Notes: generated by a model from the sequence alone, not told the origin. Shown: positions 8,862 through 18,708, numbered from the stretch's first letter. The stretch is DNA of 64,000 nt from a virus (IMGVR_UViG_3300029892_000002), one strand, 5' to 3'. Numbers and translations: made by a program.

Positions 8862-9105
8862 ACTGTCTTTTTCTCCTGTCCTTGACATCCTCCTCGACCT
8901 AATGGATGAGGATTCCTTAACCTTGCGGTCAGGTGATCCACTCCAGGTAGCCCGAGCAGGCTTCCCACTTCATAGACATGCTTACCCGATACTGACTGGG
9001 CAGAGGCGAGAGGTCTCCATGGGCTGATACCGTGTGTCACCACGGCGGTGATCTTGCTGTTAGAGCCAGCGCGATCGTGCTCGCTGTGCTCGGTTGATGG
9101 GAGAG
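8862..9105 (-). ncRNA. TnpB omegaRNA/reRNA 1 (scaffold ending TCAA plus about 20-nt guide GGACAGGAGAAAAAGACAGT)
   Basis: ACCGCCGTGGTGACACACGG..GCCCATGGAGA..TCTATGAAGTGGGAAGCC..GAGGATGTCAA downstream of tnpB. The 5' boundary is approximate. Confidence 0.7.
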
Positions 9106-10394
9106 CTAGGATACCCTAGCCAGTAAGATGCGACCAGCCACATCTCCAGGAGCATAGTGGGATACTACCCTCTCTGCCTCCTGGAGGATGTTGATGGCTG
9201 CGTTGAGATCCCTGTCATGGGTCTGGCCACAGTGTGGACATAGCCATGACCTCTCTGACAGCTTAAGCTTCCTATCTAGCCTGAGCCCAGTAACACTGCA
9301 CAGATGGCTGCTTGGGTACCAGACATCCATGTAGACCAGTGTGCAGTGCTGGGACTCGATGGCCTTATAGTTCAGCTTCTGGGTGATGCCAGACCAGGCA
9401 GCATCCATGACGTGTTTGGCCAGTTTGCTGTTACGTGCCATGTTCCCTACACGCAGCTCCTCTAGCCCGATCACTTGGTTATCGTTGACGAGGCGGCGAG
9501 ATATCTGGTGTTGGAAGTCATGGCGGCAGTTAGCTATACGGGAGTGCTGGGCTGCTAGGAGCTGACGAGATTTGATGGAGTTACGGGAGCCTTGCTGCTT
9601 ACGGGAGTGGGATTGTTGTAAGCGGCGTAGCTTACGCTGTGCCGTGACATAGTGGCGGGGGTTGGTGATAGTAGTGCCATCGCTGATAGTGGCTAGGGTT
9701 TTGATACCTAGGTCTATACCTATCCTACCAGTGCCAGAGGTCCTCTTGGGCGTGTACTCACAGGTGTAGGATACGTAGTAACGACCTGTGGAGGTCTTGG
9801 TGATAGTGAGGCTGGATGGGTCTGGTGGGAGCTCTCTGGAGTAGACCACCTTCAGAGGCTCTGGTGATTTGGCGATGAAGAGTTGGCCATCACGGATGTC
9901 GAAGGCTGTTTTCATCAGGCTGAAGGATTGTTGGGAGGTCTTCTTCTTGAAGCTCGGGTAGCCCTTGCGGGTATGGAAGAAGCGTTTGAAGGCTTCTCCC
10001 AGATGGAGCATGGACTGCTGTAGGGCCACGGCTGATACTTCAGAGAGCCAGGTGCTGGCGGGATCGGTTTTGTACCTGGGGAGTCTGGCTACGAAGCCAT
10101 ATCCTGACACATCAGGCCTGATAGGCTCTGGAGTACATGGAGCTTGCTTCATAGCCAGATAGTGGTTATATTCGGCTTTGGCCTCAGCTAGGGCTCGGTT
10201 ATAGACATAGCGACAGCAGCCGAAGGTTCGCTCTAGGAGCTCCTTTTGAGCTGGAGTTGGATAGATGGGGAACTTGAACCCCTTCTTAAGGGGCTTGGTA
10301 GGTGTGGTCATACTAAGCTCCTGTGATAGGGGATGGTGGGATATGGAGTCGCTTATATCCCCAGCCTTAAGTCTGGGGTCTTACGCTCCAAGAG
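8882..10394 (-). mobile_element. IS200/IS605-family element carrying tnpB only (no tnpA)
   Basis: Left-end hairpin GGAGCG-TAAGA-CCCCAG-ACTTAAGG-CTGGGG-ATATAAG-CGACTCC. Right end GGAATCCTC...GAGGAGGATGTCAA. Visibly more GC-rich than the flanks. The left boundary after TTAT is inferred from reading-frame restoration. Confidence 0.85.
9106..10311 (-). CDS. tnpB: RNA-guided endonuclease TnpB
   Basis: HTH (FPIYPTPAQKELLERTFGCCRYVYN). RuvC triad intact: GIDLGIK (D), GLEEL (E), HDRDLNAAINI (D). Zn ribbon CSVTG/CPHCG. Confidence 0.95.
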   Translation of the reverse strand: MTTPTKPLKKGFKFPIYPTPAQKELLERTFGCCRYVYNRALAEAKAEYNHYLAMKQAPCTPEPIRPDVSGYGFVARLPRYKTDPASTWLSEVSAVALQQSMLHLGEAFKRFFHTRKGYPSFKKKTSQQSFSLMKTAFDIRDGQLFIAKSPEPLKVVYSRELPPDPSSLTITKTSTGRYYVSYTCEYTPKRTSGTGRIGIDLGIKTLATISDGTTITNPRHYVTAQRKLRRLQQSHSRKQQGSRNSIKSRQLLAAQHSRIANCRHDFQHQISRRLVNDNQVIGLEELRVGNMARNSKLAKHVMDAAWSGITQKLNYKAIESQHCTLVYMDVWYPSSHLCSVTGLRLDRKLKLSERSWLCPHCGQTHDRDLNAAINILQEAERVVSHYAPGDVAGRILLARVS

Positions 10395-10635
10395 ATAATT
10401 TCAATCCATACATAGGTCCTAACTCTTTGATCTTGTACCAGAGTATCGGATACGAACCTTTGTTGTTTATGAAATTACCACACAGCCATGAGTCCAATGT
10501 ATCTGCTAAAGGGTGGTCTCTATTACTAAACCAAAGCTTTCCTTCATATTCTTTGAAATATTCAGGATTAGTTACCAACAATCTATCGATATCGTTTAAT
10601 ATCTTCAGCAATTCTTCCAGTTTTTCTTGAACCAT
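10381..10635 (-). CDS. Small accessory protein truncated by the tnpB element
   Basis: AGGAG RBS and repeated promoter upstream. The last codons (..CTT GGA GCG TAA) lie inside the IS left end. Confidence 0.7.
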   Translation of the reverse strand: MVQEKLEELLKILNDIDRLLVTNPEYFKEYEGKLWFSNRDHPLADTLDSWLCGNFINNKGSYPILWYKIKELGPMYGLKLSLGA

Positions 10636-12721: not shown

Positions 12722-13012
12722 TTATAAATCTATGGCGTGTGCGATTATCTCAAGTATGTCATCACTAGCTCTTAGTAGCTGTTTGTAACGATAGAGAGCA
12801 TAGTTTTCTTGCTGTGGGTCTTCAGCTTCAGGAAGTGGGTTGCGCATACGGACTACCAGAGCCTTCTGAACGTCAAGTGCCATAACGTGTCTACCAGTGA
12901 TCCTAGCGGCAACGATATCCCTAGTCAATCTGTCGAAGTATTCAACGAACATACCTTTGGATTTGTTGTTTAGGTTTTCTTTGATTAATATCGTCCGATG
13001 AATCGTGCTCAT
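12722..13012 (-). CDS. Hypothetical protein
   Basis: 96 aa, AGGAGG RBS. Confidence 0.65.
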   Translation of the reverse strand: MSTIHRTILIKENLNNKSKGMFVEYFDRLTRDIVAARITGRHVMALDVQKALVVRMRNPLPEAEDPQQENYALYRYKQLLRASDDILEIIAHAIDL

Positions 13013-13104
13013 TTTTTAAACCCCTCCTGAGATCAAGGATATATACCCAATGGATATCTATATACCTAGCCTTTTAACCAGGCTAGGTATATAGAGTATG
13101 TCAA

Positions 13105-14568
13105 TTAGATCCTATTGGTTACGAACATCTGATCACACAAATAGTCCACGATATAGTGAACTGTAGCGATCAGTGCTGCTTCATTGGGATCGACATCTGG
13201 GTTGATACGAGCCACTTCTTCGATCTCAGACAGGATGAACTCAGCATCGGTATAGTAGAATCTACAACGACAGATAACTTTCATAGCCGTCATGTAGATC
13301 TGTTCGATATCAGAAGGCTTGAGTTCGTCGATCATCTCACCAAGGAGTTTGTTAACAACGGCAGTGTGGTTACCGTGTGTCTGGATATATTCTTTCTCAT
13401 CTTCCGTGGGCTCGTTCATGAGTAGACTGAAGGTAAGTTTCAGACCAACCTTAGCTGTGTTTAATCTTTGGTTAGCTTGAGCATTATGGTAGAACAGGCT
13501 ATAGGACTCCCATTCTTTCTGAAGACGGACTTCATTCTCTTTGAGTTTTTCAATGGTCCGATATTCAAGACCAAGACTCAAAAGAGCGAAGAGGAATTCA
13601 GTACGACCACCATCTTCAAGCCACTTACGGAAGACAGGACCAAACACACAGATAGTCTTGGTGCTGCTGGAGACCTCAAGAACAACGGTCTGATTCTTAA
13701 CCAAGAGATCCAGGTGGTTCATATAGGCAGCCAATACAGCTCCAGCAAAGTTCCTGTACTCAGCAACAAGGTTATTCTTAGCAGCTGTAGACATCTGCAC
13801 ATCATCAGACAGCCCAGTCTCTTTGTTATAGACAGCGTTAGCAACCAGGAAAATAATCAAAGCCTCATTCATATTGCATTGAGGCTGAAGACGATTCCTG
13901 AATGCATCAGCAAGAGCACCTGGACTAAACATAAGCTTCTTAGCTACTTCAGCATAGCCTTCTTGTTTGGTAGAAGTATACCAAGCAGCGATGTGTTTAT
14001 CAACTTCACCATCACCAGTCAGGATGAAGTTAAGCAATTCTTCATCATTACCAATCTGGATAGGACAGGCAGTCTGAGGACGAATAGCGTCGATGTTCTT
14101 GATATCCTGATATTTCTTAACAGTCTCAAGAAACACCATGTCTTCCAAAGGTTGAGGAAGTTCAAACGTCTCTACGTTGTACTGAGATTCAGGACCAGGA
14201 CATTGAGCAGACTGCATGTATATCTGAAAACGCTCGGCATAGTCCATCACCAGAGGCTTGACGACGTTCTTAGCAAACTTCAAATGAGACGATACAGCAG
14301 CTTTAACATCGTTCAAGAACCCATCCATCATGGCGTCATGCTGGGTAGGAGTGTCGAAGTTAAAAGTAGCATTCTCAAGCAACTTTGCAAAACCAGCCGT
14401 ATCGAGATCGTCAGTTTTAGTAAGGATACCGGAATTCAAAAGCATGCCATTGGTAACACGATCAAGTTCACTCAAGACAGTGTTGGGTTTAGCATGAACA
14501 GCCAAAGATTTCGACGCGAGATCTTCGGCAAGAGGCATAGCGGAAGTAACAGCGTAACTAGACAGCAA
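13105..14568 (-). CDS. Conserved phiKZ-like protein downstream of vRNAP beta
   Basis: 487 aa; TTG start after AAGGAG; C-terminal C..RFYYTDAE.IL motif. Function unknown. Confidence 0.7.
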   Translation of the reverse strand: MLSSYAVTSAMPLAEDLASKSLAVHAKPNTVLSELDRVTNGMLLNSGILTKTDDLDTAGFAKLLENATFNFDTPTQHDAMMDGFLNDVKAAVSSHLKFAKNVVKPLVMDYAERFQIYMQSAQCPGPESQYNVETFELPQPLEDMVFLETVKKYQDIKNIDAIRPQTACPIQIGNDEELLNFILTGDGEVDKHIAAWYTSTKQEGYAEVAKKLMFSPGALADAFRNRLQPQCNMNEALIIFLVANAVYNKETGLSDDVQMSTAAKNNLVAEYRNFAGAVLAAYMNHLDLLVKNQTVVLEVSSSTKTICVFGPVFRKWLEDGGRTEFLFALLSLGLEYRTIEKLKENEVRLQKEWESYSLFYHNAQANQRLNTAKVGLKLTFSLLMNEPTEDEKEYIQTHGNHTAVVNKLLGEMIDELKPSDIEQIYMTAMKVICRCRFYYTDAEFILSEIEEVARINPDVDPNEAALIATVHYIVDYLCDQMFVTNRI

Positions 14569-14700
14569 TTTCTTTCTCCTTTATTCAAAGAGGTCCTAGC
14601 CTCACGGCTAAGTATTCCTGCTTCATAGAGTGGTCTTACTGCACCAGCATCTCCACAGGCTTAACATCCCGTGCATTTCACACGGTAGGGTATTGTTCGG
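14564..14700 (-). ncRNA. TnpB omegaRNA-like scaffold 2, lacking the canonical TCAA end
   Basis: ACCGTGTGAAATGCACGGGA..GCCTGTGGAGA..CTCTATGAAGCAGGAA, then hairpin CTTAGCC-GTGA-GGCTAGG, then ..TTTGAA TAAAGGAGAAAGAAATTG (RBS and start of the next gene). Boundaries are approximate. Confidence 0.6.
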
Positions 14701-14702
14701 AA

Positions 14703-15890
14703 CTACGCCATGTAGTCGCGCGTAAGGATGATCATAGCCCGAGGATCCAAGATATGACTCATCGCTAGTGTACGTTCGGCTAGCTGACGTAGGTTTTGAG
14801 AGGCGTTGTCGTCCCTCTCATGACGTGTACCACAGTGCTCGCAAGTCCACTCTCTGACAGACAGACCTAGTTTCTTTGACGGTCTACTACCACACACATG
14901 ACACTCTTGCGTGCTAGGATAGTAACGGTCTGCTATGATGAGTCGACAGTGTTGCGAGGCTATACATTTATACTCCAGCATCCTTCTGAACATACCCCAT
15001 CCTGCTGTCATGATGTGTTTGGATAGATGGCGGTTACGAACCATATTACCTACAGCAAGGTCCTCTATGCAGATCGCTTGGTTCTCGCGAACGAGTGCGG
15101 TTGAGAGCTTGTGAAGGTGGTCCTTCCTCTGGTTAGCTATATGTTGATGACACTTAGCTACCTTTAGACGGGCTTTGTTACGGTTGTTGGAGCCTTTTTG
15201 TTTACGACTTAACCTACGTTGTAACATACCTAACCTTCGTTGAGAGGCTAGGTAGTGGCGTGGGTTAGGTATCGTGATACCATTAGACATAGTGGCCAGG
15301 TCTGTGATACCTAGATCTATACCTATTATACCAGTACCTGTGGTTTTAACTGGCTCGTATTCACATAGGAAGCTAGCGTAAAACTCTCCAGTAGGAGTCA
15401 TGGTGATCGTGACCTGAGATGGAGCCGATGGTAGATCACGAGACCATAGGACTTTGATAGGTAGAGGGCATTTACGGATATGAAGCATGTCGTTACGGAT
15501 ACTGAAATCCTGCTTATCTAATCTGAATGAGCCTCCATCGGTTTTCTTCTTGAACTTCGGATAACCTGTCTTTTTCTTACGCCCTCGACTAAAAAAGTTC
15601 TGGAAAGCTCTGCCTAAGTCCTGAATTTTTTGATTACATGCAGCCGCTGGGACTTCTTGCAACCATGTCATATCAGAATCGTTTCGAAGATACTTAATTC
15701 TAAGACATAAGGCATATGGAGATAGGTTTGGTTTTGGTATAGATGCATTGGCTATGTGGTCTTGATATTCTCGCCTTACCCGAGCCAGGATCTCATTGTA
15801 GATCCATCTTGTACCACCAATATACTTGCGTAAATAAATTACAGCTTCTAAAGATGGCCTAAGTCGTTCTCGATAGGCTTTTTTATGCAC
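14703..15890 (-). CDS. tnpB: RNA-guided endonuclease TnpB (second copy, no transposon ends seen)
   Basis: RuvC triad intact: GIDLGITD (D), CIEDL (E), HERDDNAS (D). CHVCG/CEHCG Zn ribbon. GTG start 8 nt after the upstream stop codon. Confidence 0.95.
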   Translation of the reverse strand: MHKKAYRERLRPSLEAVIYLRKYIGGTRWIYNEILARVRREYQDHIANASIPKPNLSPYALCLRIKYLRNDSDMTWLQEVPAAACNQKIQDLGRAFQNFFSRGRKKKTGYPKFKKKTDGGSFRLDKQDFSIRNDMLHIRKCPLPIKVLWSRDLPSAPSQVTITMTPTGEFYASFLCEYEPVKTTGTGIIGIDLGITDLATMSNGITIPNPRHYLASQRRLGMLQRRLSRKQKGSNNRNKARLKVAKCHQHIANQRKDHLHKLSTALVRENQAICIEDLAVGNMVRNRHLSKHIMTAGWGMFRRMLEYKCIASQHCRLIIADRYYPSTQECHVCGSRPSKKLGLSVREWTCEHCGTRHERDDNASQNLRQLAERTLAMSHILDPRAMIILTRDYMA

Positions 15891-15898
15891 TTTGATCC

Positions 15899-16102
15899 TT
15901 ACTCAGTCGGCTTGAGTTTGCTAATATTACGCTGCATGCGCGAAACCACCAAACAACGCACAGCTTCAGAAGTAAGTGCGCTCTTATTGATGGACTGAGC
16001 GATATCGCCACCGGCGAGATCTTTAACGATCCGAGTAGCCAGATCTGCTGCATTGCCGAGCGTCACTACAGACGCACGAGCACGTTCAATTTCGATAGAC
16101 AT
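15899..16102 (-). CDS. Small hypothetical protein
   Basis: 67 aa, GGAG RBS, biased codon usage. Confidence 0.7.
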   Translation of the reverse strand: MSIEIERARASVVTLGNAADLATRIVKDLAGGDIAQSINKSALTSEAVRCLVVSRMQRNISKLKPTE

Positions 16103-16184
16103 TGTAATGTTCTCCAGTTAGAGGACTTATCACTTAACCAAATGATGGCCGATCCCAGAGAGAAGTCTCTCTGGGACCAGGCTA

Positions 16185-17303
16185 TTAACTACGATATAAC
16201 TGTATGGCTTTCTTGGCCACTTGGTCTAATAGCACAGAACAAGTACCAATAGCTAATGGTGAAAGTGTAATACGTTTACCGATGGACATATAACTAAAGA
16301 TCGCATCGATGGTTTCGCCTCTTTCCGTCTTCATGTCATATGACATGACTTCAGACACAACCGATTTAAGCTGGTTAGCAAACACCACCTTATCGCCGAG
16401 TTGTGCTTTGTCGTTGATGATGATGTAGACTTTTATGACGGCTGTGTCAACATGTAAAGGTTTACCTTCAACACGGAATTCTTCATTCACACGTCCGTCT
16501 TTAATGACATGATCTGTGTTCTTCGTACGTTCTAACATCTGCTTGTTTGAATAACTAGCTAGTTTACGTAACGAAGGTGTCATGTCTTCTAGATCACCAT
16601 TGTAATAAACTTCATATCTATCTATCTTACCATTAACCTTAGCCTTAGGAGCTAGATTAGATAGCCTAGACAGAGCTTCAATGGTATCTGAGTCGAATAC
16701 ATCTAAGCCACTAGTGATAGCGTCTTCGATGATAAAGATTATGTCATTAGGCTTAACTTCTGTACCAGGATTAGTGACGTTCCTGATGCTCTGATTGAAG
16801 TTTATTATGAATGACTTTTCCTTAACAACTCTAGTACTAAGTCTCTGAGATAGATTTGGTGTTATGCTATCAGAATCCTCAAGGGTCTGAGTAGTGTCCA
16901 TGATAGCTACTTTGGCTTTCAATGAGGTCTTCATGATGATCTGTTTAGGATTCATGAAATCAGGTTCAAAGAAGCCTGTGTTATAAGCGATCGGATCATT
17001 CTTCTTAAAAGACTGACCTTGTTTAAGAGGTGTAGCTATTTCATGAGGATACAGAGATCCTTCTGAACGACCGTATTGTGTACCGATCTGAATACCTACA
17101 CGTTCTTTGTTCTTATACTCTATTGTGATTACTTTATCAGTCAGTTCTATGACTTTACCGTCATCCTGAGCCATATATGCATAGAGTTTACCAACCCTAA
17201 AAGGCATGACTGATTCATAACCAGTTCTGATTTGAGGTTGGTGATATCCCTCACATGCAACAGTATGACTATTCTGGATTGACACAAAATTCACTCTTTT
17301 TGG
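16185..17303 (-). CDS. rpoB: Virion RNA polymerase beta subunit N-part (phiKZ gp178-like), exon 2
   Basis: PKRVNFVSIQNSH...IRTGYE...GDKVVFANQLKSV (beta GDK motif). Joins in frame to exon 1. Confidence 0.9.
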   Translation of the reverse strand, partial: PKRVNFVSIQNSHTVACEGYHQPQIRTGYESVMPFRVGKLYAYMAQDDGKVIELTDKVITIEYKNKERVGIQIGTQYGRSEGSLYPHEIATPLKQGQSFKKNDPIAYNTGFFEPDFMNPKQIIMKTSLKAKVAIMDTTQTLEDSDSITPNLSQRLSTRVVKEKSFIINFNQSIRNVTNPGTEVKPNDIIFIIEDAITSGLDVFDSDTIEALSRLSNLAPKAKVNGKIDRYEVYYNGDLEDMTPSLRKLASYSNKQMLERTKNTDHVIKDGRVNEEFRVEGKPLHVDTAVIKVYIIINDKAQLGDKVVFANQLKSVVSEVMSYDMKTERGETIDAIFSYMSIGKRITLSPLAIGTCSVLLDQVAKKAIQLYRS

Positions 17304-18708
17304 CTTTATGTCCAGCTAGGTCGCTACTCTAGCCCGGTGTGCTAAGACACCCGCATAGGCTTTCACCCATGAACAGACTATATCTTCATCCATGAAGGAC
17401 GGCTCCCATTTCGGCCTCGCTTGAGACCTACAGGTTGATAACTCCTTAGTCGTTGAACGTTACGCATATCTCGTCATCTCGACGATACTTAGCGTCTTCG
17501 CTGCTGATTACCCATATATCCATACACTTATTAAGCCGTGGCTTCACCTTTCGGTTAGCAGTGGCAGTATGGCTTTAGGACGTCCCAGCAATTAGAGAGC
17601 ATTTCATCTAGATATTACTACCTAGAGAGACCATTAAACTTATTAGAATGGATAATAACCATAACGACAACCATCCCTAAAAACTTTTTTACCATTAGAC
17701 GATAATCGATAGTTTAGAGCAGTTGGACTTAACCCGTGAGATCTTGAACATTCTATTGCTGATGTATAGATCTTTCTCTCACCAGTATTCTCATTAACCA
17801 CCTGTACAACTCTATATAATCCAGATGAAGCGAGTTCCTTGTATGGATCTTTAACTTCTCTCCATTGTACTGGATCTAATGCCCATTGTAGTTGTATAAG
17901 AGGAAAAAACACCGGTTGATTTGGTTCATTAATCCACGTGCTAAGAGTTGCAATAGATAGACCGAGATGTTCAGCAGTTTCTTTGAGCGTAGGTATGAAA
18001 AAAACATCGTTTGTTTTTAAATTCTTGAGAAGAACTGGTTTATTTAAACCATTTTTCATTAGTTCTTTCTCAATATCAATAGGAACAGGCCATGGTTTAT
18101 TAGACCTAAAACGATATTGTTTTCTATCTGGAAATACTCTACTTTCACCCTGATGTACTCTGTAATTTACAGCATCTTTAGAGATACCGTAAACCTTAGC
18201 ACATTCTGCTATACTCGGAAATTCCTCTACAACCCCACTATCAACATTTCTAACAGATATAGGAAGACATTTATTCGTTAAACCAAGATTACCAGCATGA
18301 TGGATATTTCCAGTATGGGTGGTCCATTCCAAATTATCCAATTCATCATTTCCTTTTATTCCGTCTATGTGATTGACTACAAGCTTATTTAGATCAGAAC
18401 CAGGATGCTTGAATACAATGCAGAGTAACCTATGTCTTCCTTGAAGAGTTTTTTTACCACTGTCACTAAACATAGAGTAATGGTAATAACCAGATTCGCC
18501 ATTTTCTGTTTTTATGAGTGGTTTTAACTCTCCTGAACCATCCTTTTTAATTACAGAACCTTCTTTTGAAATTCCATACATAGAGAACCCAGGAATTTCA
18601 AAATAACCTGGATGGTTTTTAATTTCTTTGGGATGATAATTATCCATACGACCCTTTCTTTTTGAATCTATATAATAAAAGGTCGTCAATATAAAATAAG
18701 TTTATTTA
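17304..18708 (-). mobile_element. Group I intron (1405 nt) carrying an HNH gene
   Basis: Core P AATTGCTGGGA, Q AATCAGCAGC, R GTTCAACGACTAAG, S AAGATATAGTCTG. The 5' exon ends in U (GAT GAT) and the intron ends in G (..CATAAAG|CCA). Confidence 0.92.
17643..18689 (-). CDS. Intron-encoded NUMOD4/HNH homing endonuclease
   Basis: EIPGFSMYGISKEG (NUMOD4-like); HRLLCIVF..VNHIDGIKGNDELDNLEWTT..GNIHHA (HNH); three F.S..ECA..G.S...NYR-like DNA-binding repeats. The start may be ATG 18647. Confidence 0.9.
   Translation of the reverse strand: MTTFYYIDSKRKGRMDNYHPKEIKNHPGYFEIPGFSMYGISKEGSVIKKDGSGELKPLIKTENGESGYYHYSMFSDSGKKTLQGRHRLLCIVFKHPGSDLNKLVVNHIDGIKGNDELDNLEWTTHTGNIHHAGNLGLTNKCLPISVRNVDSGVVEEFPSIAECAKVYGISKDAVNYRVHQGESRVFPDRKQYRFRSNKPWPVPIDIEKELMKNGLNKPVLLKNLKTNDVFFIPTLKETAEHLGLSIATLSTWINEPNQPVFFPLIQLQWALDPVQWREVKDPYKELASSGLYRVVQVVNENTGERKIYTSAIECSRSHGLSPTALNYRLSSNGKKVFRDGCRYGYYPF

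Follow-up and report, generated by a model that had tools for sequence, protein, structure and literature searches.

TnpB is the ancestor of Cas12, and its known natural role is in the persistence of IS200/IS605 insertion sequences, whose empty donor site it cuts. The guides of TnpB proteins are the 16-20 nt just past the scaffold of the associated omegaRNA, and for the TnpB of ISDra2 the target-adjacent motif (TAM) is TTGAT. TnpB homing, or transposon retention, has been shown in bacteria, where the empty site is cut and the element is copied back (Meers et al., PMC10055086). For co-infecting phages or plasmids as recipients, a theoretical proposal of "non-restorative homing" exists (PMC13565253); a full-text literature search returned no demonstration of TnpB homing in a phage. 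Here we describe a tnpB gene and its omegaRNA on the minus strand of a 64,000-nt stretch of virus IMGVR_UViG_3300029892_000002 (the whole stretch being referred to below as the window), where the pair lies between two conserved jumbo-phage genes and lacks transposon ends. On balance, we favor the reading, drawn from the sequence, that the pair is a free-standing, TnpA-independent RNA-guided homing element.

The locus shares features with several described systems. Like ISDra2 TnpB (PDB 8BF8, 8EXA, and 8H1J), to which it is ~40% identical, the protein has the full-length architecture with the catalytic triad and zinc ribbon, the scaffold RNA lies just 3′ of the gene, and the predicted guide would come from the flank. 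It differs from ISDra2 in that TnpA, the left end, and the TTNA right hairpin are all missing, in that the scaffold is ~119 nt long and starts after the stop codon, and in its host, a phiKZ-like jumbo phage. In bacterial TnpB homing, TnpA transposition and both ends are kept, whereas here homing would be the sole mode of spread and would take place between phage genomes. T4-like phages harbor free-standing homing endonuclease genes (seg and mob; intronless homing) that present the same picture of an end-less nuclease gene wedged between conserved co-oriented genes, and the element described here would likewise be expected to spread when an allele without the gene suffers a double-strand break, the flanks being co-converted (PMC13565253, section 3.2). 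Unlike in seg and mob, recognition here would be RNA-guided and set by the 3′ flank rather than by the protein, and self would be distinguished from nonself by the presence of the insert, as in intron homing.

An intact TnpB and its omegaRNA

The tnpB gene (14703-15890, minus strand; assigned by Pfam and alignment to PDB structures) encodes 395 amino acids (aa) between a GTG start and a TAG stop at 14703-14705. Its Pfam matches are OrfB_IS605 (1.4e-31), Cas12f1-like_TNB (7e-19), and HTH_OrfB_IS605 (5e-6), and since the last of these starts at residue 3, the N terminus of the protein is complete. When all PDB chains were searched with phmmer, the best natural match was ISDra2 TnpB (E = 5e-64, 220 bits, residues 2-378); the IS607-type TnpB of ISFba1 (8IAZ) scored lower, at 127 bits. 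The motifs GIDLG (D192), CIEDL (E276), and RDDNA (D360) align to the catalytic positions of ISDra2, so that the RuvC D-E-D triad is intact, as is the zinc ribbon (CHVC, C330-C333, and CEHC, C350-C353). A preliminary description of this DNA had recognized both, and judged by its residues the protein is a full-length, catalytically intact TnpB. We also considered a nuclease-dead regulator of the TldR type, which is ruled out by the intact triad, the zinc ribbon, and the full length. The preliminary description had further proposed that the ratio of nonsynonymous to synonymous substitution rates (dN/dS) be computed for relatives; against the copy in locus L007, which holds the nearest protein, tnpB has a dN/dS of 0.06 at a dS of ~2, where synonymous sites are saturated.

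The sequence upstream of the gene leaves a left end no room. On the minus strand, positions 15904-15888 read GAG TAA GGATCAAA GTG, which comprises the stop codon of a conserved 67-aa phage gene, a spacer of only 8 nt (15891-15898), and the tnpB start. A left-end hairpin would not fit in this spacer, and folding of the last 100 nt upstream of tnpB yielded no hairpin of the CCCC..TTNA..GGGG type. This bears out the preliminary description, which had placed the start of tnpB 8 nt after the upstream stop and had noted the lack of a left end; the positions and sequence strings that it gave proved correct. Together with the TAA stop, the spacer forms an SD-like (Shine-Dalgarno-like) TAAGGA, and tnpB is probably translated from this short ribosome-binding site of its own, which overlaps the upstream stop codon. 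The near-repeat of TAAGGA as TAAAGGA on the far side of the element had been read as a possible trace of capture by recombination, but it would be expected of any gene inserted in an operon with its own ribosome-binding site. A right end of the canonical type is likewise absent from the locus: The loop is GTGA, and the tail is TTTGAA instead of GGATGTCAA. Among the 24 non-nested open reading frames (ORFs) of 100-260 aa in the window, none matches Y1_Tnp or Resolvase.

The omegaRNA scaffold (~14584-14702, minus strand, ~119 nt) starts after the tnpB stop and takes up most of the 134 nt that separate the TAG of tnpB from the TTG start codon of the next gene, which encodes 487 aa. Its conserved core (14615-14692) consists of two stems and an internal loop with the RAGATH-18-like motif CCUGUGGAG..UAUGAAGCAGGAA, and is 90-100% identical to the cores of L007 and L008, the loci of the two nearest proteins, despite the saturation of dS. 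An RNAalifold consensus of seven phage-borne copies contains 18 pairs, seven of which show compensatory changes. The RAGATH-18 motif is the core of IS607 TnpB guide RNAs (PMC11061315), and the window RNA resembles the right-end RNA of that group (ISFba1, 8IAZ) in this core motif. It differs in that the Rfam match to RAGATH-18 is sub-threshold (24 vs. 44.9 bits), the window has no serine recombinase, and the protein matches 8IAZ less well than ISDra2; membership in IS607 was rejected on these grounds.

The core is followed by a terminal hairpin, CTTAGCC-GTGA-GGCTAGG (14595-14612, minus strand), with a 7-bp stem and a GNRA loop, in place of the canonical TTNA-loop right-end hairpin. The stem covaries among copies (TAGCC/GGCTA in the window, GGATCT/AGGTCC in L007, and GCCC/GGGC in L008), and two more GNRA-stem variants are known only as loose contig ends in sequencing runs X6 and X7. 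Replacement of the TTNA right hairpin, the expected binding site of TnpA, by a GNRA stem suggests that the structure is now kept for the RNA alone. After the hairpin comes an 11-nt scaffold tail, ACCTCTTTGAA (14584-14594, minus strand), equal in length to the canonical tail GAGGATGTCAA. A (T/C)TGA(T/G/A) motif occurs 0-7 nt after the stem in all five members of the subclade, and similarity ends beyond it. We set the 3′ end of the scaffold where conservation stops, and an end at ..TTTGAA is thus a reasonable placement. The preliminary description had contrasted this ending with a canonical GATGTCAA, and the contrast is real, in that the canonical members of the family and a second tnpB in the window (tnpB-2) end in GGATGTCAA.

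Directly 3′ of the tail, the sequence continues with TAAAGGAGAAAGAAA and then TTG (14583-14566); written out, these last 18 bases of the gap with the start codon included are TAAAGGAGAAAGAAATTG. With the scaffold end placed directly before it, the predicted guide would be the 16-20 nt that begin at TAAAGGAG (14564-14583, minus strand), covering, for the 487-aa gene, both the SD (AGGAG, 14576-14580) and the TTG with the spacer between them. The 16-mer from 14583 is unique in the window. The preliminary description had likewise put the guide where translation of the next core gene begins, which agrees with a scaffold that abuts the SD and TTG.

Two side observations concern this end of the RNA. 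In the minimum-free-energy fold, CUCUUU of the tail can pair with AAGGAG of the SD of the 487-aa gene across a 5-nt loop (14574-14592 region), a pairing that would leave the ribosome-binding site, or else some of the guide, inaccessible; the hairpin is missing in L007 and L008 and may be due to chance. In locus L071 (693-780), a fragment of a 59%-identical tnpB is followed by an omegaRNA core that lies almost immediately before the apparent next ORF, with no terminal hairpin, which suggests that this phage-borne group can do without the 3′ part of its scaffold.

Empty junctions and related copies

The two genes that flank the element adjoin each other in related phages. The upstream gene (67 aa, 15899-16102, minus strand) ends in GAG TAA and keeps its native C terminus, ..KLKPTE, which resembles ..KMKSTEY in the metagenomic relatives L019 and L073; its product aligns over the full length to the small ORF found ahead of the phrog_3841 gene in both Burkholderia phage FLC9 and Ralstonia phage RP12. 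The downstream gene (487 aa, 13105-14568, minus strand, with the TTG start at 14568) is itself a conserved jumbo-phage gene of phrog_3841 (3e-48). The gap between the small ORF and the phrog_3841 gene is 1 nt in FLC9, 3 nt in RP12, 7 nt in L019 and L073, and 12 nt in L074 and L075, compared with ~1318 nt between the same two genes in the window. Since these six related loci join the flanking genes directly, the ~1.3 kb in the window is an insertion. The preliminary description had proposed alignment of the locus across jumbo phages, which thus produced six empty junctions, although no close relative lacking the insert was among them: Even in the closest of the six loci, the 487-aa protein is only ~50% identical. 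A megablast search of the locus against 50,697 phage records gave nothing closer, and scans of IMG/VR, for which the queries were the 487-aa protein and the downstream genes of the L007 and L008 copies, gave no closer relatives with an empty site. Every contig that encodes an identical 487-aa protein either carries the insert or is broken inside the omegaRNA.

The edges of the insert can be placed to within a few bases. At the junction in L074, the TAA is followed by 12 nt beginning with AGGGG and then by ATGCTGTCC; this is collinear with the right side of the insert in the window, where TAA is followed by 12 nt beginning with AGGAG and then by TTGCTGTCT. The likeness favors native sequence resuming at TAAAGGAG. 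In this favored reconstruction, the insert would run from about 15901 to 14584, with a 3-nt ambiguity that arises because TAA stands on both sides. We disfavor an alternative in which the native spacer would be the GGATCAAA on the left (compare GGTTAAC in L019) and the last base of the element would be 14569, next to the TTG. The reason is that the stretch from (T/C)TGA to the start codon has a different length in each of the three copies (15, 17, and 30 nt), as well as a different sequence, and is therefore unlikely to be scaffold.

Close relatives of the element are found elsewhere. The nearest protein, P0004 (82% identical), is encoded in L007, which belongs to another phage, one whose DNA polymerase gene is divergent, and the second nearest, P0005 (80%), in L008 and L009; the tnpB loci of L007 and L008 are unrelated to that of the window. 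L007 was considered as kin of the phage studied here, both having a 706-aa ORF, and was rejected, since tblastx shows that the two share the tnpB region alone. The next relatives, 54-57% identical, lie in phiKZ-like contexts next to phiKZ_IP or Peptidase_S80 genes and are co-oriented with the flanking genes. Scanning metagenomes with the TnpB added relatives only at ≤42% identity, and the TnpB of phage EL, from another TnpB lineage, is 36% identical (tblastn). All of the closest relatives sit in phage surroundings and point the same way as their neighbors, and, as in the window, the scaffolds of L007 and L008 run directly into the SD and start of the next gene.

No 5′ sequence is shared by the window, L007, and L008; nucleotide similarity begins ~45-65 nt inside the ORF. 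Local alignments of the 200 nt upstream of seven tnpB copies all fell within the shuffle expectation, a comparison that has low power for short hairpins and that missed the likeness between L013 and L014 despite their 81% nucleotide identity over the coding sequence. Our calls of left hairpins rest instead on direct inspection. A guess at the TAM from the sequences upstream (TTGAT 19 nt upstream in L008, CTGAG before the insert in the window, and nothing comparable in L007) was dropped as over-reading. In L007 (7981-8003), the ATG that has a good SD before it is not in the tnpB frame, and the in-frame ATG (8001), right after a TAG, has no SD; this copy may therefore use translational coupling or reinitiation.

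As read from these comparisons, the lineage is old, has moved between loci and between phages, and is under purifying selection on protein and RNA in the absence of transposon ends. The preliminary description had called the gene immobilized, which is at odds with the presence of 80%-82% identical relatives at other loci of other phages, with no left-end sequence in common. The saturation of dS at a dN/dS of 0.06, together with end-less relatives in other loci, argues against simple decay of one copy; the lack of ends looks like the lifestyle of the lineage.

The family does include copies with ends. A core-motif scan of species-representative genomes yielded 19 loci, mostly on contigs of betaproteobacterial metagenome-assembled genomes (MAGs), which we compared with three compact members of the family. 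The canonical betaproteobacterial members and tnpB-2 share with the window element an omegaRNA core motif that ends in CTATGAAG(C/T)(A/G)GGAA and encode proteins that are 45%-50% identical. They differ in having matching left and right hairpins, ~80 nt more of scaffold, and the terminus GGATGTCAA, all of which the copy studied here has lost. In this majority, betaproteobacterial in type, and in tnpB-2, the ~80 additional bases after the core end in a CCCCnnCC-TTNA-GGnnGGGG hairpin plus the tail GAGGATGTCAA, and similarity between the copies stops there. Two identical 1783-nt copies on a Burkholderia MAG contig define the canonical left end: (T/G)TGAT, 16 nt, and a CCCCGTCC-TTCA-GGGCGGGG hairpin that mirrors the right-end hairpin, with the left junction at (T/G)TGAT|CGCG. 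Left hairpins of the same kind lie 35-70 nt before the start codons of tnpB-2, L011, and L072.

The Burkholderia sp. MAG contig in question (JAYFRX010000003.1) holds three canonical copies (L060, L062, and L066) within 28 kb, of which two are identical over 1783 nt, with the junction (T/G)TGAT|CGCGATG. The tnpB-2 element of the window (8881-10395, minus strand; ORF 9106-10311) is 45% identical to the first tnpB. Its left hairpin, CCCCAG..CTGGGG, lies ~60 nt before the ATG, its omegaRNA is long, and its tail is GGATGTCAA, giving it, in contrast to the copy studied here, the look of a complete element that TnpA could mobilize.

A second strain and a proposed homing mechanism

The locus was found in public runs from subsurface, landfill, and rock metagenomes (X1-X8), and one of them, landfill run X5, contains a diverged strain that also has the insert. 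The divergence between the two strains is mosaic. Over 13012-14644, X5 differs from the window at 100 of 1633 positions (6%), and below 13012 the two cannot be aligned. By contrast, over 15318-17294, which covers the 5′ part of tnpB, the 67-aa gene, and exon 2 of the RNA polymerase gene, the two strains differ at 11 of 1977 positions (99.4% identity). The differences nearest to the insert are at 14515 and at 14573, the latter in the spacer between SD and start codon, and none occurs in 14574-14986, scaffold included. The change is highly significant by Fisher's exact test, both for the two large tracts (P = 6e-24) and for the tracts that adjoin the boundary (P = 1e-6). Near-identity starts at the element's right edge and holds as far as 17294, from where the X5 contig continues into an RNA polymerase gene that has no intron. 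Repair triggered by TnpB would leave just such a breakpoint at the guide region, which makes this single comparison suggestive.

Phage RNA from the locus is present in two subsurface metatranscriptome runs, with contigs over 13000-14707, 14615-15286, and 15121-17112, which between them include the omegaRNA and parts of tnpB. In run X6, a metatranscriptome contig joins 17303 to 18709 in frame (..SLNDD|PKRVNF..), corresponding to a spliced RNA polymerase gene, and the run therefore contains genuine phage RNA. The start of one RNA contig, at 14707, falls at the stop codon of tnpB, which is a hint only, contig ends not being RNA ends.

In the mechanism that we propose, the RNA-polymerase gene cluster of the phage and the module would be transcribed together. 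Toward its 3′ end, the transcript would fold into the omegaRNA scaffold, and the sequence just past the scaffold, with the ribosome-binding site and start of the 487-aa gene, would serve as guide. In the carrier genome, the guide match would be preceded by the scaffold instead of a TAM, and self would be left uncut. In an insert-free co-infecting relative, the same stretch would lie directly after the end of the 67-aa gene, which would supply the TAM, and TnpB would cut there. Repair of the break from the tnpB-carrying genome would copy in the 1.3-kb module, and failure of repair would destroy the competitor genome. Action against relatives that lack tnpB, as the preliminary description had suggested, fits all of the indirect evidence that we found. 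We note in passing a match to Pfam RuvC (crossover junction endodeoxyribonuclease) at 3.7e-9 in one of the 24 small ORFs of the window. A Holliday-junction resolvase is thus among the proteins of the phage itself, a point that bears on how its selfish elements could spread by recombination.

Several points weigh against homing. An empty allele of the exact locus is absent from all runs and contigs of the phage studied here and of the X5 strain, all of which carry the insert, and the element may be fixed in this phage. The three related copies (window, L007, and L008) are preceded by no shared motif from which a TAM could be read. The disfavored reconstruction of the insert would shift the guide into the coding sequence of the 487-aa gene, onto its start and the codons that follow. 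Strict conservation across the full copies, three in number, ends already after ..GGAC (14593), although a 16-20-nt guide would cover the SD of the 487-aa gene with the scaffold end at GGAC and at TTTGAA alike. The step in divergence could be an ordinary recombination breakpoint, and the RNA data are assembled contigs, which carry no information on ends, strand, or loading into TnpB. Finally, homing leaves the route of the lineage to new loci without explanation.

The same data fit a "domesticated" and a "selfish homing" element alike, and the alternative that we take most seriously, while still thinking it unlikely, is a weapon or regulator without homing, in which TnpB and omegaRNA would destroy competitors at this locus, or RNA structure on the ribosome-binding site would modulate translation of the 487-aa protein, the module itself not being copied. 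Fixation of the insert in all sampled genomes of this phage and its position in an essential-gene cluster are in keeping with such a role, as is the capacity of the CUCUUU tail to pair with the next SD; that pairing is not conserved in L007 and L008, however, and close relatives at unrelated loci of other phages imply movement. Killing and homing are also hard to separate, in that a cut genome is normally repaired from an uncut homologous genome in the same cell. Movement might alternatively be driven in trans, by a TnpA of host or phage or by an IS607-type serine recombinase acting on cryptic ends without hairpins. The RAGATH-18-like core recalls IS607 TnpBs, which lack hairpin ends, have SD-like TAMs (AGGAG, for example), and tolerate a disordered, dispensable stretch just before the guide (PMC11061315). 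Given the stronger match to ISDra2 than to ISFba1 TnpB (220 vs. 127 bits), the sub-threshold Rfam score, the lack of a recombinase in the window, and the lack of conserved 5′ sequence among the copies, we regard mobilization in trans as very improbable.

The missing ends could instead reflect decay, if a TnpA-mobilized IS200/IS605 insertion had lost its left end by deletion and been stranded, with tnpB still intact for lack of time. The canonical relatives with their standard ends and the complete-looking tnpB-2 element in the same window speak for such an origin, yet synonymous sites are saturated against the nearest relatives while dN/dS remains at 0.06 and the omegaRNA core is nearly identical. 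Those relatives show the same GNRA swap of the right hairpin and share no left end (the upstream 219 and 177 nt in L007 and L008, respectively, are not cleared of cryptic hairpins), and the insert has been kept in two strains that differ by 6% next door. Decay of this copy thus appears improbable to us. That the module is an inactive relic, passively transcribed and conserved by hitch-hiking in an essential operon, we find scarcely credible: Nuclease activity is predicted here from residues, which gives this view some room, but hitch-hiking gives neither a dN/dS of 0.06 between copies in different genomes nor compensatory changes in RNA stems. We therefore retain the free-standing homing element as our working interpretation.

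Genomic setting and implications

The genes upstream of the 67-aa gene match the phiKZ-type RNA polymerase beta families phrog_2986 and phrog_3148, and homologs of the 487-aa protein occur in 22 phage records and 22 metagenomic clusters; judged by its gene content, the neighborhood is that of a phiKZ-like jumbo phage. The preliminary description had placed tnpB in a virion RNA polymerase (vRNAP) operon. This label is supported in part, by the flanking phrog_3148 and phrog_2986 genes and by the record of one homolog, in Erwinia phage RAY, where the gene is named "putative vRNAP beta subunit 1." A promoter and terminator scan of the minus strand around the insert found nothing, jumbo-phage promoters being outside the coverage of the scan. 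The RNA polymerase beta gene is itself split by an intron (17304-18708, minus strand) that carries an HNH endonuclease ORF (17643-18689). The X5 DNA contig has no intron at this site (..SVNDDAKR|VNF..), and the intron is therefore polymorphic between strains.

Beyond this locus, we suggest, tentatively, that a TnpB lineage of phiKZ-like jumbo phages shed both ends and the transposase and became a self-programming RNA-guided homing endonuclease gene. A copy that lands behind a suitable motif would take the initiation region of the next gene as its guide and would drive into, or kill, insert-free co-infecting relatives. The locus offers a concrete, testable case, with an insert defined to a few bases, an empty site that can be reconstructed, a predicted guide, close relatives elsewhere, and a strain with a recombination step. 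If our interpretation is correct, RNA-guided nucleases would act as homing endonucleases in competition between phages, here beside an HNH intron of the same operon, and this would account for solo TnpBs being common in large phages. It would also provide, for study, a compact TnpB with a short scaffold of ~119 nt. Such an element would be a natural RNA-guided gene drive among phages. It would also show, in a system still alive today, how a transposon passenger turns into a free-standing guided nuclease, a step that is believed to have come before Cas12.

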